Shown here: piece after piece, positions 32,488-53,668 of the stretch | Numbering within the stretch: the first letter of the stretch is position 1 | How the letters are laid out: each line of letters opens with the position of its first letter | NCBI GenBank assembly: GCA_045546995.1 | Contig: JAZQDW010000067.1 | Location: 1,864-65,863, forward strand | Source: Eubacteriales bacterium | Lineage (GTDB): Bacteria; Bacillota; Clostridia; Oscillospirales; QAKW01 | Direction: 5' to 3' | Length of the DNA: 64,000 nucleotides | Translations under genes and position numbers: made by a program | The notes under the pieces: model-generated | The model's database searches: none | The model's input: the letters and a program-made list of their open reading frames with translations, nothing else | What the model was told of the DNA's origin: nothing

Positions 32488-32561
32488 CGGAGCAATAACC
32501 GCCTATCTTACCTTGTAATTATGCACAATTTTAAAATGCTTTTCTTGTACACTTTTTCATA

Positions 32562-32590
32562 TTGTATAGGTTGGTAAAATATGGTAAAAT
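32562..32590 (+). promoter_or_regulatory. candidate sigma-A promoter of the leader
   Basis: TTGTAT, 17-nt spacer, TAAAAT, with TGg extended -10. Conserved in the right copy. Confidence 0.55.
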
Positions 32591-32624
32591 AAAATTACAG
32601 AAATCTATGAAAGAGGTGAGCCCC

Positions 32625-32693
32625 ATGGTAATAGACTGTTCCGTGATCGGTTGCAGTTCCTTTCGTGCGGCTCATTTTTCTTTCCACCGGTAG
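32625..32693 (+). CDS. 22-aa small ORF MVIDCSVIGCSSFRAAHFSFHR (leader peptide or small peptide candidate)
   Basis: AAAGAGGTG SD 6 nt upstream. Conserved in the second copy as MAIDCSVIGCSSFRAAHFSFHR. Coding status unproven. Confidence 0.4.
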   Translation: MVIDCSVIGCSSFRAAHFSFHR

Positions 32694-32709
32694 AACCAAA
32701 CAAGCCAAA

Positions 32710-32743
32710 GCGCAAGGGGGCTGTAGCCACCCTTGCGCTTTTT
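32710..32743 (+). terminator. intrinsic terminator between the leader ORF and the rhs gene
   Basis: GCGCAAGGG...CCCTTGCGC stem with inner GGCT/AGCC extension, then T5. The rhs ATG lies 35 nt downstream with no promoter recognised in between. Confidence 0.7.
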
Positions 32744-32777
32744 ACATATTCATTATTGCTTAGAAAGGAGCAAAAAA

Positions 32778-35700
32778 ATGAAAACAAAGTTATGGCTACG
32801 CAGTATTTCTTGGCTTGTTTGTTTACTGCTGATCACTCAATGCTGTACTTTTGCGGTTTCTGCCGAAACGGAAACTGTAGCCACTGAAGCAACAGAAGAG
32901 CCTGTGCAGATCGAAGGCGAGTTGATCCAAAAGCGCACGGCGAATGAAAAATACTTTATGCGCAGTGACCAAAGTATTCTGGCGGCGGTTTATCCGAATG
33001 CCGTTCATTATAAGGACGTGGATGGCACCTGGAAAGAGATCGACAACCGCTTAACTGAATCCACCGATGGTGCAGAGACGGTATTTTCCAACACCGTCAA
33101 TGCGCTGAACGTCAAATTTGCCAAAAAAGCAAAAGATGGTAAGTTGGTGAAGCTTCATTATGAAGATACCAAAATTGCTTGGTACTTAAATGGCGCCGCC
33201 AAAACCACCGCCACCCCATTGGAAAACGACTGGCCGGAGCAAACGGATCCTACGGCAGTGATTGGCAATCAATCCGCCGTCTTATATGAAAATATTTTAC
33301 CGAAAGTAGATCTGGAATATCTGCTCATCGGTGATGAACTGAAGGAAAATATTGTCTTAAAAGACCGCACGGCCATAGGTACCTACACCTTTACCTATGA
33401 AACGGGCGCGCTTACAATGACCCTTTCCGACAATATGATCACTCTTTGGCAAGGGGATAAGGCGGTTCTGTTTTTGAACGCGCCTCTGATGACCGATGCC
33501 GCCGGCAACACAAGTGATGCCATTACGCTTTCTTTGCGGCCGGAAAAGGAAAACGAAAATAATCACGTTTATACGGTTTCCGTCACCCCCGATGCCGAAT
33601 GGCTGAACGCCGCCAGGCGTGTATATCCCGTCAAGGTGGATCCTTCCCTGACCACCGAGCAGACCTATGAAAACATAATGGACACCTACGTCAGCAAGTT
33701 GGCTCCCGGGTCTAATTATACAGATGAGATCACGTTCCGTGTTGGCAAGGATGCATCCACCAATGATGTCTATCGGGCGTTTCTAAAGTTTGATCTTCCC
33801 ACGGATATCGGCGAAAGCGATCGTGTGGTAAATGCTACCCTAAATCTGTATCCCGATCCACGATTGACCCATCTGGATACCCTGAATGCCATGGCATCAC
33901 AGCGTCCCGTGTTGCAGGCGCACGCCGTCCAAGAGACGTGGGCTACAAACGAGATCACGTGGGGCAATCAACCCGAGACGGACAGCGATATGCTGGATTA
34001 TGAGATCGTTGAGGCCAAAAACGGCTCAGAAGATGCCACCCGTTGGTACGGATGGAATATTACCTCCTTGGTGGATGATTGGTATACCTCCGGTGTCAAT
34101 AACGGTGTGATGCTGAAACTGGATAATGAATCCGGTTATACCGGCAATACGGTTGCCAAATTCTGTTCTTCGGAATTTAATTTGCTGGAAGATGATAATT
34201 CAATCGTATTCCCCTTGGTCAGTATTACCTATCTTAATATGCTGGGTCTGGAGGACTATTGGACGTATCATTCTTTGGATGCCGGCGTGGGCGGTACTGC
34301 CTACGTCAATGATTTTACCGGTGGCCTGACGATCGTGACTCCTGTGGCATCGGTAGACAGCGCTCACACGCCGCTGAACGTGTCGCTGGTCTATTCTCCC
34401 GGCTCTAACGATGCAAGCATCAATGCGCTGAACGTGGGCAATCATTTTATGCTCAATCTGCAGTGCTACGTAAAGCCGGTCACGATCGGCGACGTTCAAA
34501 AATATAAATACGTCGATGGGGACGGCACCACCCACTATTTTGCACAAAAAAATAATAAATGGACGGATGAAAGCGGCCAGGACCTGACCCTATCAATGGG
34601 CGACGGATATTATACCATACGGGATAAAAAAGATAATCTCCTGCGCTTTTATGCAGATACCGGCCGCCTGTGTAATATTAAAGACAGCGTGGGCAATAAT
34701 ACCCAATTGTATTATACGGTGGTGAACGGAAAATACTATCTCTCCTCCGTCACCAACGGTACCCACACCATCACCTTTACCCGTGACAGTAACAACCGTT
34801 TGTCGCGCGTGTATTATCCCGATGCCGACGGAACCAACGATCAGCGCTTTGCACAGATCACCTATACGGCATCTAAAAATGGCATTTACCATTTGACACA
34901 ATATATTCAGCAGGGCACCACATTGACCCCGACCCACATCGTCAGCTTCCCCTGTGATCATAACGTGGTCAGTCGGATCATCAGTTGTCCGTATGATGCA
35001 GATCGGGCAGATGGTGCCGCATTAAGCGGAACGGCATTGATCTTCGGTTATACCAACGAAGGGAATCTGTCTGAGCACCGTCGACGTATCACCTCTTATA
35101 AGATGGTGCCTTACGTAAACGGCACCCTGCAATCCAATCAACCGGAATACCATTATGCGGTCACTTATCATCGCAATGCTACGCGTTTTACCTCTCAAAT
35201 TGCAGGAGATAGCGGTGTATTTAGTAATGAACTCTACACCTTTGATGCATTGGGCAGAACACGCTCGGCCCAGGATCAGGACGGCTATGCCACCTATCAG
35301 GAGCACGGCATCAGCGGTGGCGCCAAGAATAAGGTCACCTTTACCTCCGATACACGCCGCCACGTTGCAAATCTTCTGAAAAATCACAGCTTTGAAAAGG
35401 GCGATGCCACCACCCTGACCCAATGGGCAAAAATCGGCAACAGCGGCGATAATGCAGCCATTAAAGGGACTGCCGATAACGAGCCGGTCTTTGTCGGCAC
35501 AAAGGCAATGAAGGTATATAAAAATGATGCCGCCCAAACCGTCAATTCCTCGGTGCGGCAGGCCATTACGCTGACAAAGGGCAAAAAATATACCCTCTCC
35601 GCCTATGTCTACACCGATTTGACCACCCTTTCCACTTCCGGCTATACCGGCGCATTTTTGTGCGTAGAAACGGCGGATTATTCACCCCAGAGCTATTGTC

Positions 35701-38700
35701 ACAATATTATCAGTGACGGCGCTTGGTCACGCCATTTTGTCACCATCGACCTGACCGGGAACGTGGATATGGCAACCAGTGAAACGTTTTACGTTTATCT
35801 TGGTATTGAGCGAGCAAAGGGTGCGGTATATTTTGACGGTGTCCAACTGGAAGAGGGCGGCTCGGTCAATTCCTATAACCTGATCGAAAACGCCGGCTTT
35901 GAGGACAGCACGGACACCGCCTGGATCGGTACCGAGCTGCAAAGCGGCGATGGCCGCACCACCGATTCCTCCCGTGTGGGATACTTCTATAAAATGGTCG
36001 GCAACAGTAAAACGTCCAAAAAGCTGGCCCGGACCGTCACCGTCAGCGGTAAACAGGGCGATGGCATAACGGCAGGTGCCTTTATTCGCAACTTCGGCCT
36101 GCCCAATAAGGATACCTATCATAACGGCACCAAACAGGATTGTGCCATCACGTTGGAAATTTGCCATTCCGACGGTTCCTCCCAATTTGTCACCCAAAGT
36201 GCGGAAAATGAGGTCGATCATTGGCAATACGTTTGCCTGGGAGCTGTTGCCGAGGAGAATTATACACAGCTTAAACTGTATCTAAAGTTCATTTATAACG
36301 GCAATACCGCATATTTTGATGACGTCGGTCTGTATCGGGACACCTTCGGGCAAAGCCTGACCTACGATGAAAAGGGCAACGTTACCACCGTGGTAGATAT
36401 GGCCAATAATACCAAAAACATCATCACCGACGGTAATAACGATATGACCTCCTATACGGACGGCGAGGGCAACGAGTATACCTTCGAGTATGACGGTGGA
36501 AACAGTGCGACGAAAAAGCATCTGCTGACCAAGGTGACCGATCCTTTGGACGATCAAACGGCATATACGTATGATGCAAAGGGCAACGTTACCAAGACCA
36601 CCTTAACGGATGCGGCGGGTAATATGACGATGTCCGCCTCCACCGCCTATACGGCAGATGGACATTACGTTGCAAGTCAGACGGATGCGGCAGGTATGTC
36701 CATTCGTTATAATCGTTCAACCGTGGACGGACGGGTAAATGACGTTCGTGCACCGTTGCCCGACGGTTATGATCTTAAAACTAGTTATACCTACGATCCG
36801 CTTACCAAGGAGACGGTGGGCGTTGAAGTGGCAACCGATATTCCCTACGGTGGCGAACACCGTTCTTTGCCCGCCAACGTAACCTATGCTTATGACCGTG
36901 GCAATTTGACGGATATCGTCCGTAAGGCTGACACAACCAAGCAGATGGGCTATCATATGACCTACGATAACGTTGGCAAACGCACCGGCGTGTATTGGTC
37001 GGGCAAAACCAACACCCAATCGCTGTTGCAATCCGCCACTTATAAAGATTTTGGTGCAGTGGATACCGTTACCTACGGCAATGGCCAAACCTTGTCTTAT
37101 ACCTACAACAACGCAGGCTTGGTCACTGAAAAGGCATATAATAATACGCCGGTGGTAAAATACGACTACAATGCAAACTATGCCCTCGGTGCCGCCGCCT
37201 ATTATCGCCCGGTCAGCAACACCTGGGAGCGTACCAACTACTTTTATGACCTGGCAGGCCGGATCTCCGAAACTAAGGATACCCGCGGTCTCAGCACCGG
37301 CGCCTATTCGTATGATAAAAACAATCGTCTGCTCTCCTATCGGTCGGTCTTGGAGGATGCCCACGTAGATCTTGGGTATACTACGCGCTATACCTATTTG
37401 GCCGATAACACGCTCAAATCCATCTGTCTGGATCCCGATGGCGGATATGAAAGCGGTACGATGCGGTACGGCTATGATGGGATCGGGCGACTGTATATCA
37501 AGAGATTATCGCTGGATAGTATGGACAATTCTTTCAGAATAGACTATACTTATAAGCAGAATGAGGACGGTTCCCGTACCACCCGACCTTCCACTACCTC
37601 TTACAAGGGTATATACAATGGTACCACCGTGGAGGGTTCGTACTACAGCACCTATTATGACGACGGCAAAATTGCCTCTCATCGGGTCATCGATAACAAC
37701 GGTACAAAAACCACGGCATTTGAATATGATGCATTGGGGCAACTTACTTCCACCGATGACGGCACCGACGAATACACCTATTCCTACGATGCCGGTGGCA
37801 ACCTCACCGCAAAAACCTTCACCACTTCGGCAGATGACAGCGATTATACTGCCACCTATACCTACGACAGCAACTTTTCCGACCTGTTGACCGGATATGC
37901 CAAAACCGAGGACGGTGTCACCACCACCCGCACCTATAATTATACTGCGAGCAATGGTACCAAATTTGTCAATCCCGTTTCCATTACCGAAACCAACGGC
38001 ACCACCAGCAGTGTGATGCAGCTTGGTTGGCGGCAGGGCCGGACGTTGGAAAGCATTACCACCGATGCCGGTACCGTTCGCTATGAGTACAATGAAAACG
38101 GTCAGCGTATTTTGCGACAACTGGTCAACGGCGCCAAACGGGAATACTATTACAACGGCACGCAGTTGGAGTATATCAAGATCCTTACGGCGGCGGGTAA
38201 CCTGACAAGCACGATGCGTTATATTTATAATGCAAACGGTCAGGCGGAATATATTCTGTACATTACCAAAGGCAATGCAAAAACTCCCGCGGCCTACAAC
38301 CTGTACTACATTCTGCGAGATAACACGGGCGTGATCCAAAAGCTCATCAAGGTGCGCGCGGCAAGTTCTACCTCTGTCACCCCCACCTTGTCCGTGGCAG
38401 TGGAATATAAGTACGACCCCTACGGTAAGCTTCTGTCTATCACCAAGGCCAGCGGCGAGAGCGTTGGCACCTACAACCCCCTCGTTTATAAGGACTATAT
38501 CTGGGACAGCGAGACTGATTGGTACTACTGCAACAGCCGTTATTACGATCCCGAAACGGGCAGATGGATCAATGCGGATGCATATTTAACTACGGAACAA
38601 AGTATTACCGATACCAATATGTTTTTGTATTGCGGAAATAATCCTGTTCTTTTTGAAGATGCTAGTGGAAATAGGTACGCTGTTTCCGCTTCGCAAATAG

Positions 38701-39188
38701 AAGACGAAACATGGGAGGAGAGAGGCTATTCATGTGATCATATGAATAAGCAAAGTGGTCGTGGGCTCAATCCATCCCACAGAGAAGAACTTCCGACAGG
38801 AGAACGACTCATATATTATACAGTTGGAAACAGCAAGGTTGTTACACCGAAATCTTTAGGAAAAAATACAATTATTATCAAGGATGTGAGAAATAATAGC
38901 CTTGACCCAGGAAATGCAAATATGCAAATTGTAGATTCGTACAAATACACTCGTCGTCAAAATGAATTAAGGATTAATATTCTTAATAGTATGCTACATT
39001 ATTGCCAAAGAGTTCCAAATTCCGGTAATGGATGGATTAGAAGTGTTCCATCGATGCTGTGGGAGTGGGATTTGCACAATTTGGCACACGACTTGTATCT
39101 TAAGCGATCAAGTAGCGGAAGCGTTGATCTTGATAATAAATCAGAAGATTGGGGGATCATTCAACATATATGGTACGCAATTTCTTGA
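32778..39188 (+). CDS. Rhs/YD-repeat polymorphic toxin, Sec-signal, WapA-like (2136 aa)
   Basis: Signal peptide MKTKLWLRSISWLVCLLLITQCCTFAVSA. DNRLRE-like and two CBM-like regions. Many YD repeats (YxYDxxGN/R). Core end ...RYYDPETGRWINAD...LYCGNNPVLFEDASG, followed by a 170-aa unassigned AT-rich tip. Confidence 0.9.
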   Translation: MKTKLWLRSISWLVCLLLITQCCTFAVSAETETVATEATEEPVQIEGELIQKRTANEKYFMRSDQSILAAVYPNAVHYKDVDGTWKEIDNRLTESTDGAETVFSNTVNALNVKFAKKAKDGKLVKLHYEDTKIAWYLNGAAKTTATPLENDWPEQTDPTAVIGNQSAVLYENILPKVDLEYLLIGDELKENIVLKDRTAIGTYTFTYETGALTMTLSDNMITLWQGDKAVLFLNAPLMTDAAGNTSDAITLSLRPEKENENNHVYTVSVTPDAEWLNAARRVYPVKVDPSLTTEQTYENIMDTYVSKLAPGSNYTDEITFRVGKDASTNDVYRAFLKFDLPTDIGESDRVVNATLNLYPDPRLTHLDTLNAMASQRPVLQAHAVQETWATNEITWGNQPETDSDMLDYEIVEAKNGSEDATRWYGWNITSLVDDWYTSGVNNGVMLKLDNESGYTGNTVAKFCSSEFNLLEDDNSIVFPLVSITYLNMLGLEDYWTYHSLDAGVGGTAYVNDFTGGLTIVTPVASVDSAHTPLNVSLVYSPGSNDASINALNVGNHFMLNLQCYVKPVTIGDVQKYKYVDGDGTTHYFAQKNNKWTDESGQDLTLSMGDGYYTIRDKKDNLLRFYADTGRLCNIKDSVGNNTQLYYTVVNGKYYLSSVTNGTHTITFTRDSNNRLSRVYYPDADGTNDQRFAQITYTASKNGIYHLTQYIQQGTTLTPTHIVSFPCDHNVVSRIISCPYDADRADGAALSGTALIFGYTNEGNLSEHRRRITSYKMVPYVNGTLQSNQPEYHYAVTYHRNATRFTSQIAGDSGVFSNELYTFDALGRTRSAQDQDGYATYQEHGISGGAKNKVTFTSDTRRHVANLLKNHSFEKGDATTLTQWAKIGNSGDNAAIKGTADNEPVFVGTKAMKVYKNDAAQTVNSSVRQAITLTKGKKYTLSAYVYTDLTTLSTSGYTGAFLCVETADYSPQSYCHNIISDGAWSRHFVTIDLTGNVDMATSETFYVYLGIERAKGAVYFDGVQLEEGGSVNSYNLIENAGFEDSTDTAWIGTELQSGDGRTTDSSRVGYFYKMVGNSKTSKKLARTVTVSGKQGDGITAGAFIRNFGLPNKDTYHNGTKQDCAITLEICHSDGSSQFVTQSAENEVDHWQYVCLGAVAEENYTQLKLYLKFIYNGNTAYFDDVGLYRDTFGQSLTYDEKGNVTTVVDMANNTKNIITDGNNDMTSYTDGEGNEYTFEYDGGNSATKKHLLTKVTDPLDDQTAYTYDAKGNVTKTTLTDAAGNMTMSASTAYTADGHYVASQTDAAGMSIRYNRSTVDGRVNDVRAPLPDGYDLKTSYTYDPLTKETVGVEVATDIPYGGEHRSLPANVTYAYDRGNLTDIVRKADTTKQMGYHMTYDNVGKRTGVYWSGKTNTQSLLQSATYKDFGAVDTVTYGNGQTLSYTYNNAGLVTEKAYNNTPVVKYDYNANYALGAAAYYRPVSNTWERTNYFYDLAGRISETKDTRGLSTGAYSYDKNNRLLSYRSVLEDAHVDLGYTTRYTYLADNTLKSICLDPDGGYESGTMRYGYDGIGRLYIKRLSLDSMDNSFRIDYTYKQNEDGSRTTRPSTTSYKGIYNGTTVEGSYYSTYYDDGKIASHRVIDNNGTKTTAFEYDALGQLTSTDDGTDEYTYSYDAGGNLTAKTFTTSADDSDYTATYTYDSNFSDLLTGYAKTEDGVTTTRTYNYTASNGTKFVNPVSITETNGTTSSVMQLGWRQGRTLESITTDAGTVRYEYNENGQRILRQLVNGAKREYYYNGTQLEYIKILTAAGNLTSTMRYIYNANGQAEYILYITKGNAKTPAAYNLYYILRDNTGVIQKLIKVRAASSTSVTPTLSVAVEYKYDPYGKLLSITKASGESVGTYNPLVYKDYIWDSETDWYYCNSRYYDPETGRWINADAYLTTEQSITDTNMFLYCGNNPVLFEDASGNRYAVSASQIEDETWEERGYSCDHMNKQSGRGLNPSHREELPTGERLIYYTVGNSKVVTPKSLGKNTIIIKDVRNNSLDPGNANMQIVDSYKYTRRQNELRINILNSMLHYCQRVPNSGNGWIRSVPSMLWEWDLHNLAHDLYLKRSSSGSVDLDNKSEDWGIIQHIWYAIS

Positions 39189-39994
39189 AAACCGCGTTTT
39201 CGGCGGTCAACATTATTTTGTATATAGTACTGATGCTTCCATTGATAGCATTTCCGATCCTTTTGTTCTTTCCCTATATATTTGAAGCAAACCTGTACTT
39301 TTCAACCATCTATTACTATCTGCTATCAGGACAGATCGAACTCTTTTTGCTTTTGGTTATTTTACTGCTGTTCTTTTTTATAAAAATCATTCGTCGGGAA
39401 AAAGTTTATTATTTATTCTCATCGCTGTTGCTGATAGCAAATTGCATTTTTGACGTTTTGACTTGGAACAAACCATTGCACGCGGTTGGAATTATCGTCA
39501 AACTGTTGATTGCGATCTCATTTTTTGTTGAAGGATGGAGGGCGCGCGGAGATTATTTCTCAAAGCACAGGAAAAACTTGCGTTTTTCTGTTTGTTGGGG
39601 TAGTGTGTTGTTTTTTGCCGGCTTTTTGCAATATATGTTGCTGAAATTTGAGCAAGGTCCCATTCTCATTTTTGCGGTCGCCATCTTATTTGTTGTCGGA
39701 CAAGCAATTTGGTTCATCTGTCAGCACATGTCCGCAAGGGATGTTGGTTACATTTGGCTTGGCTCGACATTTGTATGGGGGCTCCTTTCTTCTTGGTTAT
39801 CGTTGCTGCTGTATAAGCCGTTTCCATATTGGTTTGATGTTTCCGAAGATTATATGAATGAAAAATTTTGGCCGTTTTTTGTTTTCCAAATCCTTCATTT
39901 GGTAACAATGGGCATTGTGTGGTGCATCAAGGCAAGAGGCGGTTCTAAGAAAACAGAAAGAAATAACACAGGGGACGATTCTCTTGTCTCCTGA
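39170..39994 (+). CDS. polytopic membrane protein, putative cognate immunity protein
   Basis: Overlaps the rhs stop by 19 nt. AT-rich like the toxin tip. About 8 hydrophobic segments. Start choice uncertain (TTG 39149, ATG 39170 or ATG 39233). Confidence 0.55.
   Translation: MVRNFLKTAFSAVNIILYIVLMLPLIAFPILLFFPYIFEANLYFSTIYYYLLSGQIELFLLLVILLLFFFIKIIRREKVYYLFSSLLLIANCIFDVLTWNKPLHAVGIIVKLLIAISFFVEGWRARGDYFSKHRKNLRFSVCWGSVLFFAGFLQYMLLKFEQGPILIFAVAILFVVGQAIWFICQHMSARDVGYIWLGSTFVWGLLSSWLSLLLYKPFPYWFDVSEDYMNEKFWPFFVFQILHLVTMGIVWCIKARGGSKKTERNNTGDDSLVS
39967..39991 (+). repeat. REP-like element (degenerate core GGGGACGATTCT, mixed arms)
   Basis: cacaGGGGACGATTCTcttgtctcc. Supplies the last codons and the stop of the immunity gene. 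Confidence 0.7.
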
Positions 39995-40052
39995 CCTGTT
40001 GACCGGCTATGCTAAAACCGAGGGCGGTGTCACCCCCACCTTGTCCGTGGCA
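39993..40052 (+). pseudogene. orphan rhs fragment A
   Basis: Matches rhs 37881..37922 joined to 38382..38399 at a shared GTCACC, equivalent to an in-frame 459-bp deletion. Ends at a REP-like element. Confidence 0.8.
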
Positions 40053-40063
40053 AATTGCAAGGG

Positions 40064-40088
40064 AACACAGGGGACGGTTCTGTGTGTT
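40064..40088 (+). repeat. REP-like element, stem version 2 (ACACAG/CTGTGT)
   Basis: aacacagGGGACGGTTCTgtgtgtt. Confidence 0.8.
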
Positions 40089-40089
40089 G

Positions 40090-40249
40090 ACGGGCGTGAT
40101 CCAAAAGCTCATCAAGGTGCGGGCGGCAAGCTCTACCTCGGTCACCCCCACCTTGTCCGTGGCGGTGGAATATAAGTACGACCCCTACGGTAAGCTTCTG
40201 TCTATCACCAAGGCCAGCGGCGAGAGTGTGGGCACCTACAACCCCCTCG
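40090..40249 (+). pseudogene. orphan rhs fragment B
   Basis: 160 bp matching rhs 38325..38484 with 6 mismatches by hand alignment. Homology stops exactly at the next REP-like element. Confidence 0.85.
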
Positions 40250-40281
40250 GGGGGGACAAGGGGACGGTTCTCTTGTCCCCC
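40249..40281 (+). repeat. REP-like element, stem version 1 (GGGGGACAAG/CTTGTCCCCC)
   Basis: gggggggacaagGGGACGGTTCTcttgtccccc. Confidence 0.85.
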
Positions 40282-40330
40282 GGCTCCTTAACAAACGGAA
40301 ATACAACAAATAGCTTTGGTGTAAAATTGC

Positions 40331-40368
40331 AACACAGGGGACCAACACAGGGGACGGTTCTATGTGTT
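40331..40368 (+). repeat. REP-like element, version 2, with a partial 5' duplication
   Basis: aacacaggggacc then aacacagGGGACGGTTCTatgtgtt. The 3' flank runs into the -35 of the RAYT-like gene. Confidence 0.8.
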
Positions 40369-40395
40369 GACGATTTTAGTTTGCTATGTTACAAT
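40367..40395 (+). promoter_or_regulatory. candidate promoter of the RAYT-like gene 1
   Basis: TTGACG, 17-nt spacer, TACAAT, with TGt extended -10. The -35 overlaps the end of the REP-like element. Confidence 0.55.
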
Positions 40396-40412
40396 CAAAT
40401 TGGTGATGCGAT

Positions 40413-41159
40413 ATGCCAAGACAGGCGAGACAGAAAAGCGAAAGCAGAATCTACCATGTAATGCTTCGCGGAATCAATCAACAACAAATTTTTGAGGATT
40501 CAGAAGATTATGATAAGTTCCTCAATATTATGAAAGACTGTAAGGCAATATGCGAATTTAAGCTATTTGCATATTGCCTTATGAGAAATCATATTCATTT
40601 ACTTATTAAAGAGTGCAAAGAGCCGTTGGAACAAATATTTAAACGAATCTGCGGACGATTTGTATACTGGTATAATATCAAGTACCGACGTACAGGCCAC
40701 TTGTTTCAGGATCGTTTTAAAAGCGAGCCGGTGGATTCGGAGAAGTATTTCTTCACCGTACTGCGCTATATCCACCAAAACCCTACCAAGGCAGGTATTT
40801 GTAAGTGTGTTGAGGACTATGCCTACAGCAGTTATTCGGAATATACTGGTATAAGCAGACTTGTTGACACAGAATATGTTTGGGCACTGACTACGCTTGA
40901 AGATTTTGTTGGCCTTAATCATGAAACAGTTGACACGCCCTGTTTGGATGTTTCCGAGAAAGTCATTGCGCGCGTAACGGACGAACAAGCAAGAGCAATC
41001 ATCAAAAAGATCGCGCGGTGTGACAACGTTTCGGATTTCCAAAACTTAGATCTTGTGACCAGGGATAAATGTTTGAAAAAGTTTAGAGACAAAGGAATTT
41101 CAATCAGACAGCTAAGCAGATTAACGGGCATCAGTTTTAGTATTGTGAGAAAATTCTAA
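40413..41159 (+). CDS. RAYT-type (IS200-like Y1/HUH) transposase-like protein with C-terminal HTH
   Basis: HUH motif NHIHLLI. Tyr motif LRYIHQNP. GHLFQDRFKS. C-terminal GISIRQLSRLTGIS helix-turn-helix. Confidence 0.8.
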   Translation: MPRQARQKSESRIYHVMLRGINQQQIFEDSEDYDKFLNIMKDCKAICEFKLFAYCLMRNHIHLLIKECKEPLEQIFKRICGRFVYWYNIKYRRTGHLFQDRFKSEPVDSEKYFFTVLRYIHQNPTKAGICKCVEDYAYSSYSEYTGISRLVDTEYVWALTTLEDFVGLNHETVDTPCLDVSEKVIARVTDEQARAIIKKIARCDNVSDFQNLDLVTRDKCLKKFRDKGISIRQLSRLTGISFSIVRKF

Positions 41160-41160
41160 T

Positions 41161-41216
41161 CACACACAGAACCGTCCCCTGTGTTCTATCACACACAGAA
41201 CCGTCCCCTGTGTTCT
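41161..41216 (-). repeat. two tandem REP-like elements (version 2) inverted relative to the upstream copies
   Basis: cacacacAGAACCGTCCCCtgtgttct repeated with a 29-bp period, starting 2 nt after the RAYT stop. Confidence 0.85.
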
Positions 41217-41399
41217 AATATTAACTGTTCTGTTAATCCAAGGTATCATCTGTATAATTCGGTTTTTCAAAAAGTAAATAATAGGTAGGATACAGAGGAT
41301 GGCTTCCAGATTGGCAACTCGTAATCTCAACAACAAAAATAGGGACGATTCTCCATTAAAAAGGAACTTTTATGTGACAATCAAGGAACGGACAATCAA

Positions 41400-41461
41400 G
41401 GGACAGTTCTTTGCCTCGGAAAAACTTAAACAGGGGGACAAGGGGACGGTTTTCTTGTCTC
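41400..41461 (+). repeat. direct-repeat copy 1 (gggacagttctttgcctcggaaaaacttaaacaggg) fused to a version-1 REP-like element
   Basis: 36-nt block repeated at 42577..42612 with 1 mismatch. REP gggggacaagGGGACGGTTTTcttgtctc at 41433..41461. Confidence 0.75.
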
Positions 41462-41480
41462 GAACAAAGGAGATGTTGCT

Positions 41481-42566
41481 ATGATAAAAAAACGAATGGT
41501 CTGCATATGTGCTATTATGTTGCTGTTGTTTTCTTCTTGTGGAAGCACAAATATAGTAGATCGTTTTGCCGAAACGGAACTGACAAAAGAAATCGCACAA
41601 ACCATTGTGCATTCTTTTAATTCTGCTCAGATTGATCAACCTTTTTCAACATCAGATGTTGTTCCCTATGAAATGGCATTTAAGTATTTTCGTTATTTTG
41701 GATTTTATAATGAAAAGGGTGAAATGCGCCCACAAGTGGTTTCATATCAAGATGGCTTGAAATACAAGGTGCCACGCAAAGTGGTGGATACGTATTTGAG
41801 TTCAAAGTTTAATACGACTCCAAGCGCCAAAAGCATTTCATGCTATGATGCACAGAGCGACTCTTATGTGATCGCACCCGTAGACAGTTATGCCGGAAAA
41901 ATAACGATTGATTCCATTGATAAGCTGGATAACAACCAATATCAAATCCACGCAACTGTGCAAGATGAACCGACAGAAACTCTTTTTTCTTTTGAGCAAA
42001 CGTTTACAATTGAGTATAACGGGTCATTTAAGTTTTTATCCTTTGAAGAAAAAGAGAAGGCATTTCAAGAGTTGACGGCAGAGGAACAAAAACTTTTATC
42101 GTATATTAATGATTATTATTTCTTTGATACACGTCAGTATTATGATGAAGATCACAAGATTCCTTATGACGTTGCTTTTAAGTGTTTTGCCATCTACGGT
42201 TTTTGGGATAACAATGGGGCTCTGCGCAAGGAATTAAAGCAGTATGCCACCGGAAATGAATACGAAGATCCATATAATATTCCTGCGAAAATAGTAGATG
42301 ACTTTGTCGCTTCAAGGTTTGACGTAGAGATAGATCGATCCAATATTGAAAATTACAATAAAGAAAGCGACTCATATCTCATTCTACCGAACGCTGCAGA
42401 TGGGCACGATTTTGCAGAATTGATAAGTTATGAACGTTCCGGAAACATCTATAGGATTATTGTAAATCAGCGGAATTGGTTAGATCCGAATTTGGTTGAA
42501 AAGCAAATGTTTCGTCTTGAAATAAATGACGAGAACTGCAAATATCTTGCTTTTACCAAGATTTGA
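41481..42566 (+). CDS. lipoprotein with internal two-fold duplication, function unknown (possible orphan immunity protein)
   Basis: Lipobox LLLFSSCGS. Two ~170-aa repeats (PYEMAFKYFRYFGFYNEKGEMR... and PYDVAFKCFAIYGFWDNNGALR...). AT-rich. Confidence 0.65.
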   Translation: MIKKRMVCICAIMLLLFSSCGSTNIVDRFAETELTKEIAQTIVHSFNSAQIDQPFSTSDVVPYEMAFKYFRYFGFYNEKGEMRPQVVSYQDGLKYKVPRKVVDTYLSSKFNTTPSAKSISCYDAQSDSYVIAPVDSYAGKITIDSIDKLDNNQYQIHATVQDEPTETLFSFEQTFTIEYNGSFKFLSFEEKEKAFQELTAEEQKLLSYINDYYFFDTRQYYDEDHKIPYDVAFKCFAIYGFWDNNGALRKELKQYATGNEYEDPYNIPAKIVDDFVASRFDVEIDRSNIENYNKESDSYLILPNAADGHDFAELISYERSGNIYRIIVNQRNWLDPNLVEKQMFRLEINDENCKYLAFTKI

Positions 42567-42572
42567 AAGAGA

Positions 42573-42639
42573 CAATGGGACAGTTCTTTGCCTCGGGAAA
42601 ACTTAAACAGGGCGGGAGATTTTCTCCCGCCCTGTTTTT
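42573..42639 (+). repeat. direct-repeat copy 2 plus terminator hairpin; left copy of the nested inverted repeat (partner 50712..50782)
   Basis: gggacagttctttgcctcgggaaaacttaaaCAGGGCGGGAGAttttTCTCCCGCCCTGttttt. The hairpin works as a bidirectional terminator for the lipoprotein and nitroreductase genes. Confidence 0.8.
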
Positions 42640-46041: not shown

Positions 46042-46518
46042 CTATCTTTGATTGAATGTAGATAACTCCTCACACTTGGGATATCTTTTCAGATAGCCAT
46101 CTATGATAGCCTTATCCCTACTAATAATGAGAGTCCACGAACTGTCACAAGGGACAATTTCTACAGAGGAAAGCGGATGTTGGAGAGATACTGGATTTTG
46201 ATAATACCCATTATAATCTTCGGCAGACGGCAATGGATATTTTAAGACTTCTTCAACTGTGATATTTTTAGGAAAACCGCAAAAACATCCCCAAATCCAT
46301 TGAAAATCCTCTTGTTCAATTATAGCAGATAATTCATCACCCGAAAACCAACAATACTCTTGATCAAGCAGTTTTTTGATATCCTTATTCCGTGGATAAC
46401 ATACACCATCCGTAATAAGCCAATTATATTGCAGTTGTGCATTGTTAATTGCCTGAAAAACCTTGCTCATATAAGTGTAGTATTTATGATTTCTCCTATC
46501 AACAATGCCATATGTCAT
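46042..46518 (-). CDS. hypothetical protein (158 aa), AT-rich islet
   Basis: ATG overlaps the stop of the upstream four-helix-bundle gene (ATGA). No motif assigned with confidence (possibly DUF2691-like, from memory). Confidence 0.55.
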   Translation of the reverse strand: MTYGIVDRRNHKYYTYMSKVFQAINNAQLQYNWLITDGVCYPRNKDIKKLLDQEYCWFSGDELSAIIEQEDFQWIWGCFCGFPKNITVEEVLKYPLPSAEDYNGYYQNPVSLQHPLSSVEIVPCDSSWTLIISRDKAIIDGYLKRYPKCEELSTFNQR

Positions 46519-46868
46519 CTTACATTCTCCTTTGCAGTTCGGCAGGATGCGATCAGCATTGCTCTTAACGAAGTACACTTTGCAGAAAGTGTTTTATAAG
46601 TTTGTTCGTCAATGTATTTTGTTCTGTACAAAAGTTCAAGCCAGTAACCTGTTTCGCTTGCTTCTTTTAAGGCGATTTCAAGCTTGGAAATAAAATCCTT
46701 CTTGCCTTGTGCATACTGTGTTTCGTGGATGTTGGCACCAATGCTTGTACCACTTCTGCCGATTTGATTGGAAACGATAGATTCCTTGACAGATTTTAAT
46801 TTTTTTACCAATTCAATTATATCAACTGAGAATTCCATAGAAAGTTCCCTAAGTTTTGATTCTGACAT
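46515..46868 (-). CDS. four-helix-bundle protein (23S rRNA intervening-sequence protein / Avd-like family)
   Basis: MSESKLRELSMEFSVDIIELVKKL...IGRSGTSIGANIHETQ...ALKEASETGYWLELL is typical of this family. Confidence 0.7.
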   Translation of the reverse strand: MSESKLRELSMEFSVDIIELVKKLKSVKESIVSNQIGRSGTSIGANIHETQYAQGKKDFISKLEIALKEASETGYWLELLYRTKYIDEQTYKTLSAKCTSLRAMLIASCRTAKENVR

Positions 46869-46923
46869 AATATACACCTCGCTTTTCAATATTATATCGC
46901 ATAATTGGATTGTTTGTAAATAA

Positions 46924-47052
46924 GTGATAAGTGATGCAGCTACGCTGTGATAGGTGATGCGATGCGTTCCATTCACGCGCCGCAGGCGTGCATCACGGGC
47001 GACGCCTGCATCACGCACGCAGTGCGCATCACGTTCCGAAGGAACGCATCAC
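46924..47052. repeat. mirror array of heptamer GTGATGC / GCATCAC interleaved with unique short GC hairpins
   Basis: Left half: GTGAT at 46924, 46931, 46947, 46954. Right half: GCATCAC at 46990, 47008, 47026, 47046 (18-20 bp period). Spacers are CGCCgcaGGCG, GGCGaCGCC, GCACgcaGTGC, GTTCCgaaGGAAC. Confidence 0.7.
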
Positions 47053-47097: not shown

Positions 47098-47173
47098 TGG
47101 TGGGAGTAACAGGACTCGAACCTGTGACCCCTTGCACGTCAAGCAAGTGCTCTACCAGCTGAGCTATACTTCC
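47098..47173 (-). tRNA. tRNA-Val (anticodon GAC), with encoded CCA
   Basis: Cloverleaf read by eye. Anticodon loop TTGACGT. GTTCGAGTC T-loop. One A3:C70 mismatch in the acceptor stem. Confidence 0.8.
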
Positions 47174-47188
47174 ATTTTGTACTATGTT

Positions 47189-47216
47189 ATTATATCACAC
47201 TTTTTTGAAAATGCAA
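47189..47216 (-). promoter_or_regulatory. candidate separate promoter for tRNA-Val(GAC)
   Basis: On the minus strand: TTGCAT, 16-nt spacer, TATAAT, with TGa extended -10. Confidence 0.45.
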
Positions 47217-47295
47217 TACCTTTTTTAAAAAAGTGATCGAAAGTCGCTGTATCGCCTGCGGCGAGACAGCTCTGCGCGAACTGCAGACTGCGACC

Positions 47296-47333
47296 AAAAG
47301 AAAAAGCATCCCGATAGGGATGCTTTTTCTTTT
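47296..47333 (-). terminator. long hairpin terminator after the three-tRNA unit
   Basis: AAAAGAAAAAGCATCCC gata GGGATGCTTTTTCTTTT, a 17-bp stem. Confidence 0.6.
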
Positions 47334-47408
47334 GGTGGAAGTTACAGGGCTCGAACCTGTGACCCTCTGCTTGTAAGGCAGATGCTCTCCCAGCTGAGCT
47401 AAACTTCC
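47333..47408 (-). tRNA. tRNA-Val (anticodon TAC), with encoded CCA
   Basis: Perfect acceptor stem GGAAGTT/AACTTCC. Anticodon loop CTTACAA. Confidence 0.85.
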
Positions 47409-47416
47409 GTGGGATA

Positions 47417-47491
47417 TGGTGACCCGGACGGGAATCGAACCCGTGTTACCGCCGTGAAAGGGCGGTGTCTTAACCGCTTGACCACCGGGCC
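47417..47491 (-). tRNA. tRNA-Glu (anticodon TTC), with encoded CCA
   Basis: GGCCCGGTGGTCAAGCGGTTAAGAC...CTTTCAC anticodon loop...GGTTCGATTCC. Confidence 0.85.
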
Positions 47492-47495
47492 AAAA

Positions 47496-47572
47496 TGGTA
47501 GCGGCAGCGGGATTCGAACCTGCGACCAATCGGGTATGAACCGAGTACTCTAGCCAACTGAGCTATGCCGCC
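47496..47572 (-). tRNA. tRNA-Met (anticodon CAT, elongator-like), with encoded CCA
   Basis: GGCGGCATAGCTCAGTTGGCTAGAG...TTCATAC anticodon loop. Lacks the initiator features. Confidence 0.8.
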
Positions 47573-49827: not shown

Positions 49828-49828
49828 G

Positions 49829-50647: not shown

Positions 50648-50676
50648 GGATATGCCGATAACAGAAGATACCACTT

Positions 50677-50708: not shown

Positions 50709-50711
50709 GCT

Positions 50712-50782
50712 CAAAAACAGGGCGGGAGAAAATCTCCCGCCCCGTTTAAGTTTTTCTAAGTCAGAGAACCGTCCCCTGATTG
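50712..50782 (-). repeat. right copy of the nested inverted repeat (hairpin plus aaaacttaaac block plus REP-like core)
   Basis: Its reverse complement caatcaGGGGACGGTTCTctgacttagaaaaacttaaacggggcgggagattttctcccgccctgttttt aligns to 42573..42639. The 42-nt inner block has 2 mismatches. Confidence 0.8.
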
Positions 50783-51306
50783 CCCTTGATCAACTGTTGA
50801 ATTATAGTTTCCTCTTGTGATCCCATAGATAACTGCGTAATATCTTTTATACTAATATAACTCTTGCCGTCTTCGTTTCCATCAACATCAAATTGTTTTA
50901 TAACACAGATATCATGTAGTACAGAATCGACTTTACCAATAACATCCCATTCGCCACTGCTAAGCAATTCCAAAGATACAAGTTGTTTTTTATTTTGAGC
51001 AAAATTCAACAACGACATTAAAGCATTTTCTTGAAATTCTATATCAATCTCAGGCAAAGCTTTTGTTTGCATCAATTTCTGCATTCGTTGATTGTAACAA
51101 CTATCAAGTTCTATACGAAAAACATCTCCAACACTTTTGAGCATAATGCCATCATAATTTCCGTCCGGTAGCAGAAGATACATAACAAACCACTCTGCAT
51201 CTACATACAGCACTTTGCCAAATAAAAATTTGGAGGTGTTATACCCGTTTGTGTATACCGAAGCAAAAATGTTTTTATCACGAATCTCTTTTAAAGTAAT
51301 CAACAT
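50761..51306 (-). CDS. hypothetical cytoplasmic protein (181 aa), possible orphan immunity protein
   Basis: AAGGAGA SD 7 nt upstream. AT-rich. The last 7 codons and the stop lie in a REP-like element. Confidence 0.6.
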   Translation of the reverse strand: MLITLKEIRDKNIFASVYTNGYNTSKFLFGKVLYVDAEWFVMYLLLPDGNYDGIMLKSVGDVFRIELDSCYNQRMQKLMQTKALPEIDIEFQENALMSLLNFAQNKKQLVSLELLSSGEWDVIGKVDSVLHDICVIKQFDVDGNEDGKSYISIKDITQLSMGSQEETIIQQLIKGNQGTVL

Positions 51307-51340
51307 ATCTTATTCTCCTTATGTAGTAATAATTTTCTGC

Positions 51341-51400
51341 GCAAGGGACAAGGGAGGGACAAGAGGACAGAGGGACAAGGGGACGGTTCTCTTGTCCCCC
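51341..51400 (+). repeat. REP-like element (version 1) with an iterated GGGACAAG 5' arm
   Basis: gcaagggacaagggagggacaagaggacagagggacaagGGGACGGTTCTcttgtccccc. Confidence 0.8.
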
Positions 51401-51513
51401 TGGCCAAAATTACTTTACACGGTTAAGTTTATACAATATCCTTTTCCCCAAGTTCCTATCAAAAGTTTGGTATCATGATCATAAAACTCGGCAAAACAGC
51501 CGTGATCTATCTC

Positions 51514-51545
51514 GGGGAGACAAGGGGACGGTTCTCTTGTCTCCT
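51514..51545 (+). repeat. REP-like element (version 1)
   Basis: ggggagacaagGGGACGGTTCTcttgtctcc followed by T7. Lies 5 nt from the RAYT-like gene 2 stop. Confidence 0.85.
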
Positions 51546-51549
51546 TTTT

Positions 51550-52293
51550 TTAAATGTTTGATTCTACAATTTTCTTAGAAATACCAGTTAATCGAGCAAT
51601 TTGCCTTATCGATAAACCTTTGTTATGCAATTTGCTAATATAGAAATTACGTTTTTCTTTATCAAGTTTTTGAAAATCTGCTGCTGTCTTACATTTTGTG
51701 CTTTTCAATATAATCGTTTTTGCTTCAGCATCTGTCAAGCGATAATGTTCATCCATTTCTAAACAATTATCCGCATTTTCTTCTCTGTGATACTCAATAA
51801 ATTGATCCTTCGTAATCATCGAAAGAGCAAAACTTGTATCAACAAAAACCGGAGTTCCTAAATATTCTTTTATGCTACTGTTGGCGTATTCCTCTGCCTT
51901 TATGCATATCCCTGCCTTCACAGGATTCTGATGAATATACCGCAACACCGTGAGAAAATAGCTATCATCCTCAACAGGTTCACTCTTGAATCGATCCTGA
52001 AACAAATGTCCACAGCGGTGATATTTCCAGTTATACCAATAAACATAACTCCCGGCAATTCGTTTAAATATGGCGCTTAATTCTTCTGCGCCTTCTCGCA
52101 ACAGAATATGTATATGATTCCCCATCAAGCAATACGCATATACTGTATATCCGCATAATTCCTTATATAGGGCAAGTGTTTCAACAAATCTTTGACAATC
52201 TTCTCCATCCTCAAATATCTGTTGACGATTGATTCCTCTCAATATTATGTGGTATATTCCACTATCGCTCTTTTTTCGTGCTTGACGTGGCAT
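51550..52293 (-). CDS. RAYT-type (IS200-like Y1/HUH) transposase-like protein with C-terminal HTH, diverged paralog
   Basis: NHIHILL, LRYIHQNP, GHLFQDRFKS, GLSIRQIARLTGIS. N-terminal domain about 64% identical to the 40413..41159 product by hand alignment, C-terminal part lower. Confidence 0.8.
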   Translation of the reverse strand: MPRQARKKSDSGIYHIILRGINRQQIFEDGEDCQRFVETLALYKELCGYTVYAYCLMGNHIHILLREGAEELSAIFKRIAGSYVYWYNWKYHRCGHLFQDRFKSEPVEDDSYFLTVLRYIHQNPVKAGICIKAEEYANSSIKEYLGTPVFVDTSFALSMITKDQFIEYHREENADNCLEMDEHYRLTDAEAKTIILKSTKCKTAADFQKLDKEKRNFYISKLHNKGLSIRQIARLTGISKKIVESNI

Positions 52294-52310
52294 AACTATC
52301 ACCCAATTTG

Positions 52311-52339
52311 ATAATACATCATCATCTATTTTTTGTCAA
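52311..52339 (-). promoter_or_regulatory. candidate promoter of the RAYT-like gene 2
   Basis: On the minus strand: TTGACA, 17-nt spacer, TATTAT. The -35 directly follows a REP hairpin plus T5. Confidence 0.55.
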
Positions 52340-52345
52340 GAAAAA

Positions 52346-52435
52346 GGGGACAAGAGAACCGTCCCCTTGTCTCCCAGAGAACCGTCCCCTTGTCTCCCGA
52401 GAAAAAGGGGACAAGAGAACCGTCCCCTTGTCTCC
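52346..52435 (-). repeat. three REP-like elements (version 1) in inverted orientation
   Basis: Complement cores AGAACCGTCCCC at 52355, 52378 and 52416. On the minus strand two of them read as hairpin plus T5. Confidence 0.85.
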
Positions 52436-52662
52436 TAAATATAATAGTCCCCTTGCGTTGTTTTGACAATCAATCGGGAATCTGTTGTGAATTTAGCAAC
52501 GCTCGGTTGCACCATATCGGAGAAACGCGAAACGTGCTCTCCCGTTTTTTTGTCATATAAATTCGCGCTGCCGCCGCAACAACAAAAATATTTCTCATTA
52601 TGCGCGATGTGATATGATTTCTTGAAAGTAAATAGAATCTCTTTTTTATCAATCACTTTCAT
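52435..52662 (-). CDS. 75-aa ORF, probably a truncated gene remnant
   Basis: AAGGAGG upstream (a GTG at 52656 is better spaced). The ORF ends exactly at the REP cluster boundary. No motif recognised. Confidence 0.35.
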   Translation of the reverse strand: MKVIDKKEILFTFKKSYHIAHNEKYFCCCGGSANLYDKKTGEHVSRFSDMVQPSVAKFTTDSRLIVKTTQGDYYI

Positions 52663-52711
52663 TCCCTCCTTACCATAATCCGCCCATTTGTATATCCCAT
52701 TTTACAAATCA

Positions 52712-52723
52712 TGGGACGGTTCC
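52712..52723 (+). repeat. degenerate REP-like core
   Basis: tGGGACGGTTCC followed by ctgattg (compare 50777..50783). Confidence 0.5.
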
Positions 52724-52737
52724 CTGATTGACTCCTG

Positions 52738-53079
52738 CTATGTCTTTTCGTTTTGACTTGACCATCCGCATTGATCACAACAAATCACATTGTTTCGCAT
52801 GGTGACAGTACCAAATAAAATGCGCGTCGTTCCCAAAGTAACACGTTCCTTTTGTGGGTCAGCCAAATGTTTGTGCCATACTTTATGCGTTTTGGCACCG
52901 CAATTCGGACAAACTTTAAATCGACGTTCAAAAAGTATATGTTGAACAAAGATCGTAATTGCAATCATCACAAATAAAACTCCAGCCGCAATGATGGATG
53001 CTTTAAGTCCGAAAACTTGTTTAATAATGCCCAAAATCACGAACATAAATAATGGAAATAGTAGTTTGTTGTTCTTCAT
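52738..53079 (-). CDS. small membrane protein with C-terminal zinc ribbon (113 aa)
   Basis: Two hydrophobic helices then CPNCG...CDQCG. AT-rich. Confidence 0.55.
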   Translation of the reverse strand: MKNNKLLFPLFMFVILGIIKQVFGLKASIIAAGVLFVMIAITIFVQHILFERRFKVCPNCGAKTHKVWHKHLADPQKERVTLGTTRILFGTVTMRNNVICCDQCGWSSQNEKT

Positions 53080-53088
53080 TGGAAACTA

Positions 53089-53388
53089 TCACTCCTCAGA
53101 TTCTATGTTCTTCTTTTGCCAGCGTATAAGTGCATAACTCATAGAAAGAAAGCAGAAATATGTTGTAATCATGAATACGATGGGCATCTCCGGAAATCGG
53201 TGATTTAAAATTGCATGTACGATTATTGCGGGAATCATATGTAAAAAAGTATAACCAATAGATCCCCACCATAGTTTAAAACTTTTATGGGGATAATATA
53301 TATAATTGTACAGCCAAACAAAAAGACTAAAAATATGAATAATTGGTATCCACATAATTTTCTTTTGCGTACTAATCGAAATTTTCAT
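53089..53388 (-). CDS. small polytopic membrane protein (99 aa)
   Basis: ATG 53388 after GAGGAGAAAAG. The track N-extension is a translated REP element. Confidence 0.55.
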   Translation of the reverse strand: MKISISTQKKIMWIPIIHIFSLFVWLYNYIYYPHKSFKLWWGSIGYTFLHMIPAIIVHAILNHRFPEMPIVFMITTYFCFLSMSYALIRWQKKNIESEE

Positions 53389-53402
53389 TTCTTTTCTCCT
53401 CA

Positions 53403-53429
53403 GAGACAAGGGGACGGTTCTCTTGTCCC
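53403..53429 (+). repeat. REP-like element (version 1) between the right leader and the first gene
   Basis: gagacaagGGGACGGTTCTcttgtccc. Confidence 0.85.
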
Positions 53430-53440
53430 ATAATAAAAAC

Positions 53441-53668
53441 AATATGTAAAAAGCGCAAGGGTGGCTACAGCCCCTTGCGCTTTGGCTTGTTTGGTTCTAC
53501 CGGTGGAAAGAAAAATGAGCCGCACGAAAGGAACTGCAACCGATCACGGAACAGTCTATTGCCATGAGACCCACCTCTTTCATAGATTTCTGTAATTTTA
53601 TTTTACCATATTTCACCAACCTATACAATATGAAAAAGTATACAAAAAAGACATTTTGAAATTGTGCA
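53441..53668 (-). repeat. leader module, right copy of the ~229-bp inverted repeat
   Basis: See 32522..32750. Promoter equivalents at 53600..53628, terminator at 53448..53480. Confidence 0.9.
53497..53565 (-). CDS. 22-aa small ORF MAIDCSVIGCSSFRAAHFSFHR (second copy)
   Basis: Same SD and spacing as the left copy. One amino-acid difference (V2A). Confidence 0.4.
   Translation of the reverse strand: MAIDCSVIGCSSFRAAHFSFHR

Follow-up and report, generated by a model that had tools for sequence, protein, structure and literature searches.

A repeated promoter-leader as the probable common head of two accessory islands with exchangeable cargo in an uncultured Clostridia species

Rhs loci are reportedly hot spots of rearrangement at which orphan Rhs toxin/immunity cassettes recombine (Lin, Capage and Hill 1984; Koskiniemi et al. 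2014), and the framework for them is reportedly given by Zhang et al. 2012. Leader-peptide attenuators of the trp and pyrBI type place a promoter, a short open reading frame (ORF) and an intrinsic terminator ahead of a structural gene. Putative mobile promoters were described as upstream sequences, ≥80% identical over ≥50 nt, that precede unrelated genes within a genome (Matus-Garcia, Nijveen and van Passel 2012; commentary PMC3575422), and most of the groups that cross taxa have no Rfam match and no known mobilisation mechanism (PMC3575422). The recombinase-associated acquired interbacterial defence (rAID-1) clusters of the Bacteroidales, which belong to type VI secretion system (T6SS) biology, carry a conserved XerD-family tyrosine recombinase (10.1101/471110). 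In the present study we analysed a module of 229 nt that occurs twice, in inverted orientation, in a 64,000-nt stretch of contig JAZQDW010000067.1 from a Eubacteriales bacterium of the Clostridia (hereafter the window, to whose full length all coordinates refer). Our results suggest that this repeat is probably the common head of two paralogous accessory islands, which lie in opposite orientation in a conserved housekeeping backbone, and that the heads recombine and the cargo behind them is exchanged.

A repeat search of the window returned two inverted arms (32510-32719 and 53471-53680), ungapped over 210 nt, 93% complementary and 20.75 kb apart. In a gapped alignment, the left copy of the module (32522-32750, + strand) differed from the reverse complement of the right copy (53441-53668, − strand) by ten substitutions and one 1-nt indel located in a G-run, the same count that a first-pass annotation of the window had obtained by hand, and the copies were ~95% identical over 229 nt with >130 bp of uninterrupted identity. 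Between the ATG of a small ORF (32625 and 53565 respectively) and the T-run of a terminator, only one substitution (GTA/GCA, codon 2) and the G-run indel were found, again as annotated. In pattern scans, sub-patterns of 41 nt and 29 nt occurred in the two module copies only within the window, and not once in 100 shuffles. The homology extended slightly beyond the span noted earlier, in that the Shine-Dalgarno sequence and ATGAAAA of the first cargo gene also align in both copies. Both copies face inward across four tRNA genes and several housekeeping genes, the left one leading into a Rhs gene (32778-39188), in which RHS repeats and a Rhs core domain were identified, and the right one into three ORFs (99, 113 and 75 aa), of which the 99-aa and 113-aa products are membrane-protein-like by inspection.

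The sequences behind the two modules are otherwise unrelated, as had been claimed. Protein comparisons of the first cargo products gave E = 1.4 for the Rhs N-terminus against the 99-aa product and E = 1.4 for the 138-aa product of a second strain (see below) against the 99-aa product, and only ATGAAAA was common. More than 100 nt of the module falls within −150 to −50 of both first cargo genes, whose coding sequences are not paralogous. Thus the module is like putative mobile promoters in being a similar non-coding upstream sequence before unrelated genes, with no Rfam match and no known mobilisation mechanism. It is unlike them in that the reused unit consists of a promoter, a structured leader, a terminator and a ribosome-binding site, in that it bounds islands with a shared tail, and in that the cargo is exchanged between strains.

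Three relatives (L007/L019, L013 and L022) were reached via homologues of the ClpP-like protein and the 144-aa protein, with 73-80% protein identity. In the relatives, the ClpP-like gene is followed after 12-30 nt by a convergent nitroreductase gene, and RlmA is followed after 40-48 nt by the 144-aa gene. These two junctions contained ordinary terminator hairpins only, nothing resembling the module and no flanking accessory genes. Since the relatives lack both the module and the accessory genes, the segments 32488-42639 and 50713-53770 of the window are insertions, and each module is the outermost element of one inserted island, reading inward. The islands have a GC content of 40-42%, compared with ~50% for the backbone, and the backbone between them (42.6-50.7 kb) is oriented as in the three relatives, which makes this the ancestral orientation. 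A classical transposon was considered and rejected, as visual inspection of the island borders showed neither a target-site duplication nor terminal inverted repeats.

A shared 63-nt element, made up of a motif like a repetitive extragenic palindromic (REP) sequence plus the terminator GGGCGGGAGATTTTCTCCCGCCC, closes each island when it is read in its own direction of transcription. The left tail lies at 42577-42639 (+) and the right tail, 89% identical to it, at 50713-50775 (−). A partial third copy was observed at 41390-41435, just before a gene for a 361-aa protein, at the point where contig L004 of the second strain rejoins the window. With insertions at two sites, a module at the outer end of each and a tail in common, it is rather likely that the two module copies are the heads of two paralogous islands.

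Next, we analysed six short contigs of the same species from the European Nucleotide Archive (ENA), all from one cohort (ERZ250214xx), in which the ClpP-like protein or the 144-aa protein is identical in sequence to that of the window (three contigs each) and the DNA is 96-98% identical. L004-L006, which come from three independent assemblies, carry the ClpP-like gene, the module, a gene for a 138-aa protein, a DUF5071 gene, a REP element and the start of the 361-aa gene (+), and their sequence returns to that of the window at 41435, where repeat arm I4 ends. L016 carries TyrRS, DUF5662, the 144-aa gene, the module and then Rhs. Over its positions 1-1510, L016 matched the reverse complement of window 32510-34019 at 95.9% identity, and its flank reached 98.1%; L016 and L006 come from the same sample. 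The remaining two contigs, L017 (1-208) and L018 (1-144), break off inside the module, showing that the repeat breaks short-read assemblies. The two loci are thus known with three types of cargo, and Rhs is on the left in the window and on the right in the other strain. The 138-aa/DUF5071 cargo is absent from the whole window, and a difference in cargo between the strains therefore holds regardless of how the contigs were joined. The 138-aa gene starts with TTG and has the same first six codons as Rhs (KTKLW; L004 1769-1790 compared with window 32778-32796), which places the left between-strain junction inside the first codons. This agreement suggests that the module began as the 5' region of the Rhs gene itself. 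Taken together, we regard the island architecture and the cargo relocation as solid results.

The likeness to Rhs hot spots consists of a Rhs gene, an immunity-like ORF downstream of it, repeated core fragments, and rhs-associated repeats as the homology for rearrangement. The difference is that the known recombining homology is the coding rhs core, whereas here it is a non-coding promoter-leader together with REP/tail repeats, and that the whole gene changes locus here rather than the toxic tip alone.

Alignment of the four module alleles from the two strains showed that they are mosaic. The first ~20 nt follow the locus: the 5' edge of the left module (32500-32521, +) is common to both left-locus alleles (window and L004) and unlike both right-locus alleles, being ~55% identical to the right copy, a level at which homology is uncertain. 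Three internal sites of the module and the segment after the terminator follow the Rhs cargo instead. The promoter part of L016 is that of the window's right copy, and the window's left copy has private changes. Mosaics of this type would be expected if the module undergoes internal recombination or gene conversion. The first-pass annotation had attributed the near-identity of the copies to purifying selection or gene conversion; it is gene conversion or recombination that gains direct support, from the mosaic alleles and from the presence of Rhs behind opposite copies in the two strains. Recombination inside the module and relocation of cargo between the loci are thus supported by the alleles and the cargo positions that we compared.

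The repeated segment is built like a promoter followed by a leader, as predicted from the sequence by the annotation and by ourselves. The predicted extended −10 promoter (32562-32590, +; read from the sequence) consists of a −35 element TTGTAT (32562-32567) and, with 17-nt spacing, TGgTAAAAT, with TG at 32582-32583 and the −10 element TAAAAT at 32585-32590; both hexamers are invariant in the four alleles, and transcription would start near 32597. The leader RNA from ~32597 would carry AAAGAGGTG, with the ATG of the small ORF 6 nt further on. The 22 codons, MVIDCSVIGCSSFRAAHFSFHR, and the stop codon occupy 32625-32693 (+; translation and four-allele alignment), and variation among the alleles was found at codons 2 (V/A) and 3 (I/L) only. 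The ORF and its Shine-Dalgarno sequence (32610-32618) are entirely enclosed in a predicted long imperfect RNA hairpin (32604-32694, +) of 91 nt and 33 base pairs with ~−35 kcal/mol, and the z-scores of the whole fold against dinucleotide shuffles were −6.0 (left copy) and −4.1 (right copy). Depending on the allele the hairpin contains 7-9 G-U pairs, which ties the fold to RNA of the sense strand. The intrinsic terminator (32707-32745, +) has a GC-rich stem at 32707-32741 of 12-15 bp followed by TTTTT (U5), with ~−26 kcal/mol. In the right copy (−), the corresponding elements are the −35 at 53628-53623, the −10 at 53605-53600, the hairpin at 53586-53496, the ORF at 53565-53497 and the terminator stem at 53483-53450.

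The T-run is separated from the Rhs ATG (32778) by 35 nt, which contain the Shine-Dalgarno sequence AAAGGAG of the Rhs gene (with its ATG, 32764-32780, +), a segment that aligns with the right copy, L004 and L016. Inspection and a consensus scan found no consensus promoter or promoter-like site in these 35 nt, and the Rhs gene would therefore depend on the module promoter. Four variable stem pairs of the hairpin (changes of the types A-U/G-U, C-G/U-G and G-C/G-U) all stay paired among the alleles, and the other substitutions fall at unpaired positions in bulges or loops. This pattern, from four sequences of one species, may be in weak agreement with selection on the RNA fold. The consensus scan also reported a promoter-like site on the opposite strand of both modules (TTTACC, 16 nt, TACAAT; 32561-32588 on − and 53602-53629 on +), which in the right module is directed at the 144-aa gene.

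The head of each island would thus comprise a sigma-A-type extended −10 promoter and a leader of ~180 nt that contains, in order, the hairpin with its buried ORF, the terminator, and the ribosome-binding site and ATG of the cargo. The cargo would consist of strain-variable genes separated by REP hairpins, which encode either a Rhs toxin and its presumed immunity protein or small products, some membrane-protein-like and others of no known kind, and the tail of the REP-like motif plus terminator. Homologous recombination or gene conversion would maintain the near-identity of the heads, and the heads together with the REP/tail repeats would act as homology arms in cargo exchange. Transcription would start in the module and mostly stop at its terminator, such that read-through transcripts alone would express the cargo and would keep a toxin or other cargo at a low or conditional level, with the hairpin and the upstream ORF as the regulatory part.

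Several results weigh against this scheme. The consensus promoter scan did not call the module promoter, the −35 element of which matches at three of six positions. No antiterminator was found, and the terminator formed in every 5' truncation and every co-transcriptional prefix that we folded; as no antiterminator alternative was found, read-through control is a conjecture, and the terminator might just end a small independent transcript. There was no true covariation in the hairpin, with no pair changed on both sides among four alleles of one species. Domain scans recognised neither toxin nor immunity domains in the right island cargo. Furthermore, the ENA contigs are metagenomic, have a coverage of 1.2-2.8x and cross a repeat whose identical stretches of 80-85 nt exceed typical assembler k-mers, so that chimeric joins, that is a mis-join in these contigs, are conceivable.

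The strongest rival explanation holds that the module is a self-contained small gene, with a transcript of ~145 nt acting as a small RNA or encoding a 22-aa peptide, that lies upstream of the cargo by chance. The strong terminator without a competing fold, the very stable hairpin, and a good Shine-Dalgarno sequence (GAGGTG, 6-nt spacer) and ATG ahead of an ORF whose codons 4-22 are invariant in four alleles would all suit such a gene. We nevertheless consider it unlikely. The homology does not stop at the terminator but runs on through the Shine-Dalgarno sequence and ATG of the cargo, which fits a 5' untranslated region (UTR) and not a separate gene, and the segment before Rhs offers neither room for nor a match to a promoter of its own. 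The Shine-Dalgarno sequence and ATG of the peptide itself are buried in the −35 kcal/mol stem. A full phmmer scan of 1.84 billion representative proteins with the extended small ORF gave no small homologue; three weak matches inside large proteins, two of them in several stretches, were rejected as homologues of the small ORF. There was also no match in Rfam 15 at gathering or permissive thresholds, the best sub-threshold hit being rli28 with 24 bits compared with a gathering score of 45 (E = 0.53).

The order of promoter, short translated-looking ORF and intrinsic terminator before a structural gene is shared with the trp and pyrBI attenuators. The module is unlike them in that folding gave no antiterminator mutually exclusive with the terminator, no single amino acid is enriched in the peptide and the start of the ORF is sequestered. 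In addition, the ORF stops 16 nt ahead of the terminator stem, from where a terminating ribosome would probably be too distant to melt or block the stem.

A second rival, to which we assign a somewhat smaller chance than to the small gene, is that faulty assembly created both the cargo relocation and the mosaic alleles, by short-read mis-joins through the 230-bp repeat in the ENA contigs or the window contig. The low coverage and long identical stretches described above speak for it, as do the two contigs that end within the module. Against this, the three independent assemblies agree on the join of the left flank to the 138-aa gene and none gives an alternative. The absence of the 138-aa/DUF5071 cargo from the window likewise argues for a true difference in cargo, and the Rhs segment of L016 is a distinct allele, judged by its 95.9% identity compared with 98.1% for the flank.

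The third rival concerns the REP elements. The motif GGGACGGTTCTC occurs 16 times in the window at ≤1 mismatch, compared with 0.2 expected by chance, and all occurrences are within the two islands; the copies span 39972-41454 and 50764-53422, with none in the remaining 50 kb. Their flanks are short stems that differ between copies and yet are complementary (gacaag/cttgtc, acacag/ctgtgt). One element of 27 nt (53403-53429, −) is inserted in the right module, between the terminator and the Shine-Dalgarno sequence of the cargo, and is found in that copy only. Both genes of the window for REP-associated tyrosine transposases (RAYT; Y1_Tnp) lie inside the islands, each with its own consensus promoter, and the right one is flanked by inverted REPs (51510-51549 and 52341-52380). 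The two RAYT paralogs are 63% identical over the first 120 residues, close to the ~64% noted before, and 53% identical overall. Thus the island repeats have the features of REP/RAYT (REPIN) systems, namely many short palindromic copies and a Y1 transposase gene between inverted REPs. The module itself was unlike the REP consensus in repeat, blastn and nhmmer searches.

It could be argued from these data that the hairpins act as DNA, with the head, the REPs and the tail as recognition sites of the island RAYT (Y1 HUH) transposases in an integron-like capture and shuffling of cassettes. REPs stand after almost every cargo gene and in the islands only, RAYT genes with promoters of their own are present in both islands of the window, and the right between-strain junction falls at a REP. 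We think this improbable, as the module hairpin and the REPs share no sequence and the 7-9 G-U pairs of the module hairpin would be mismatches in DNA or on the opposite strand. In addition, no RAYT lies in the sequenced part of the L004 left island, between the module and the beginning of the 361-aa gene, the left between-strain junction lies within the first cargo codons and not at a hairpin, and homologous recombination suffices for the data. A wider conjecture, to which we would give just as little weight, is that head, REP hairpins and tail form a two-locus cassette platform in which RAYT enzymes or REP-guided recombination capture and shuffle toxin/immunity cassettes behind a shared regulated leader, integron-like but without an integrase or attC.

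With respect to other mobile arrays, the islands resemble rAID-1 clusters in being strain-variable arrays of small, possibly immunity, genes with repetitive intergenic sequences and skewed GC. They differ in having no such recombinase, in the REPs with RAYT genes and in the host, a metagenome-assembled genome (MAG) of the Clostridia, and the immunity function here is putative. A Pfam search found no tyrosine recombinase (IntI or XerD) in or beside either island, as an integron or a rAID-1-like array would have, and no serine or tyrosine recombinase in the ORFs scanned across 18.7-57.4 kb. A phase-variable invertible promoter (inverton), in which short inverted repeats enclose a small segment bearing the promoter, does not fit either, as the arms themselves carry the promoters and lie 20.7 kb apart. 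The module is no member of an Rfam family, no classical attenuator and no inverton.

The suggestion of the first-pass annotation that RecA-dependent recombination between the inverted copies flips the whole 21-kb block (32.7-53.4 kb), with both orientations coexisting or alternating between strains, is physically possible given arms of 230 bp with >130 bp of uninterrupted identity, a good RecA substrate, and Rhs is joined to the right flank in L016 as expected on that side, but it was not supported and we doubt it strongly, as all contigs and the three repeat-free relatives fit one backbone orientation, as the window arrangement once flipped would put the 99-aa cargo at the ClpP-like gene and the 361-aa gene on the right, neither of which is seen in L004-L006 (from the sample of L016 and two others), where the 361-aa gene stays on the left, on the + strand, behind different cargo, and as an inversion would leave each cargo behind an equivalent head and therefore would not be a switch. 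The arrangement of the other strain, which cannot be derived from the window by one inversion, needs cargo replacement, and this could have occurred by a double exchange (module plus REP/tail repeats I2 and I4), by long-tract conversion or by replacement after transfer between strains.

We also searched for further copies of the module. None was found in any searched collection outside this species. An exact 19-mer of the hairpin apex, compared with 185,579 species genomes (one genome per GTDB species), gave three matches of 21-26 nt in unrelated phyla, which we rejected, with ~4 expected by chance. The metagenomes of JGI gave no match to a wobble-tolerant 29-nt pattern or to a 21-mer of the 3' arm, IMG/VR contained no module copy, and blastn found none in plasmids and phages. 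A covariance model built from the four alleles, run on the window and seven relatives' loci, recovered only the known copies. The closest homologues of the Rhs N-terminus (52% and 37% identity) have unrelated upstream regions, showing that the module is not a general Rhs leader. As far as the searched collections show, the module appears to be confined to one uncultured Clostridia species.

The gene order around the islands was determined using Pfam and NCBIfam. On the left, enolase and the ClpP-like gene are followed by the left module, Rhs, a multi-transmembrane ORF, Rhs-core remnants, a RAYT gene and the 361-aa gene. The backbone between the islands holds nitroreductase (−), patatin (−), ABC transporter (−) and four tRNA genes (−), then Dus, MntP and RlmA. 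On the right, a 181-aa ORF (−), a RAYT gene (−), the ORFs of 75, 113 and 99 aa (−) and the right module (−) are followed by the 144-aa gene (+), DUF5662 and TyrRS (−).

The left island cargo begins with the Rhs polymorphic toxin gene (32778-39188, +), the product of which has 2136 aa, a signal-peptide-like N-terminus, RHS repeats (PF05593) and a core (TIGR03696) followed by ~170 unassigned residues. With its repeats, core domain, C-terminal tip and a multi-transmembrane ORF downstream, the locus has the layout of a Rhs polymorphic toxin locus, and the downstream ORF would presumably encode the immunity protein. The remaining left cargo (39149-41480, +) comprises this ORF, Rhs-core remnants broken up by REPs, the RAYT gene (40413-41159) and REP elements. 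Core fragments are repeated 3' of the Rhs gene: 39993-40040 and 40090-40249 are 92-96% identical to 37881-37928 and 38325-38484 and are interrupted by REPs. They have the look of a decayed Rhs tip, orphan or displaced, with no toxin domain behind it. The lipoprotein-like 361-aa gene (41481-42566, +) is in the left island in both strains and absent from the relatives. The right island cargo (50761-53388, −) consists, from the module on, of the ORFs of 99, 113 and 75 aa, the RAYT gene (51550-52302) with inverted REPs on either side, and the 181-aa ORF.

In the remainder of the window, the tRNA cluster (47098-47572, −) contains tRNA-Val(GAC), tRNA-Val(TAC), tRNA-Glu and tRNA-Met, and is adjoined by a gene for a 23S-rRNA-intervening-sequence-family protein (46515-47018). 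A match to Gut-1 RNA (RF01706; 57638-57708, −; 59 bits compared with a gathering score of 50) lies downstream of a chromate-transporter pair. A gene for an nSTAND3/AAA-type NTPase (26955-28010, +) stands beside an ABC-F gene and is conserved in the relatives too. A low-GC region at 20-24 kb (36-43%), with an FAD-dependent oxidoreductase, a 325-aa ORF and an AraC-type regulator, was considered as a third island, and was set aside as unrelated because it has neither module nor REP.

If the two module copies are indeed the common head of two islands, one non-coding promoter-leader would be used more than once to drive interchangeable toxin or accessory cassettes in an uncultured gut lineage of the Clostridia. 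The leader, compact and uncatalogued, would combine an upstream ORF buried in a hairpin with an unconditional-looking terminator. Repeats of this kind break or mis-join short-read MAG assemblies exactly at the strain-variable loci. The promoter-leader would double as a homology arm through which a whole Rhs gene changes locus, and the idea of Rhs loci as rearrangement hot spots would thus extend from the coding cores to a regulatory 5' element.

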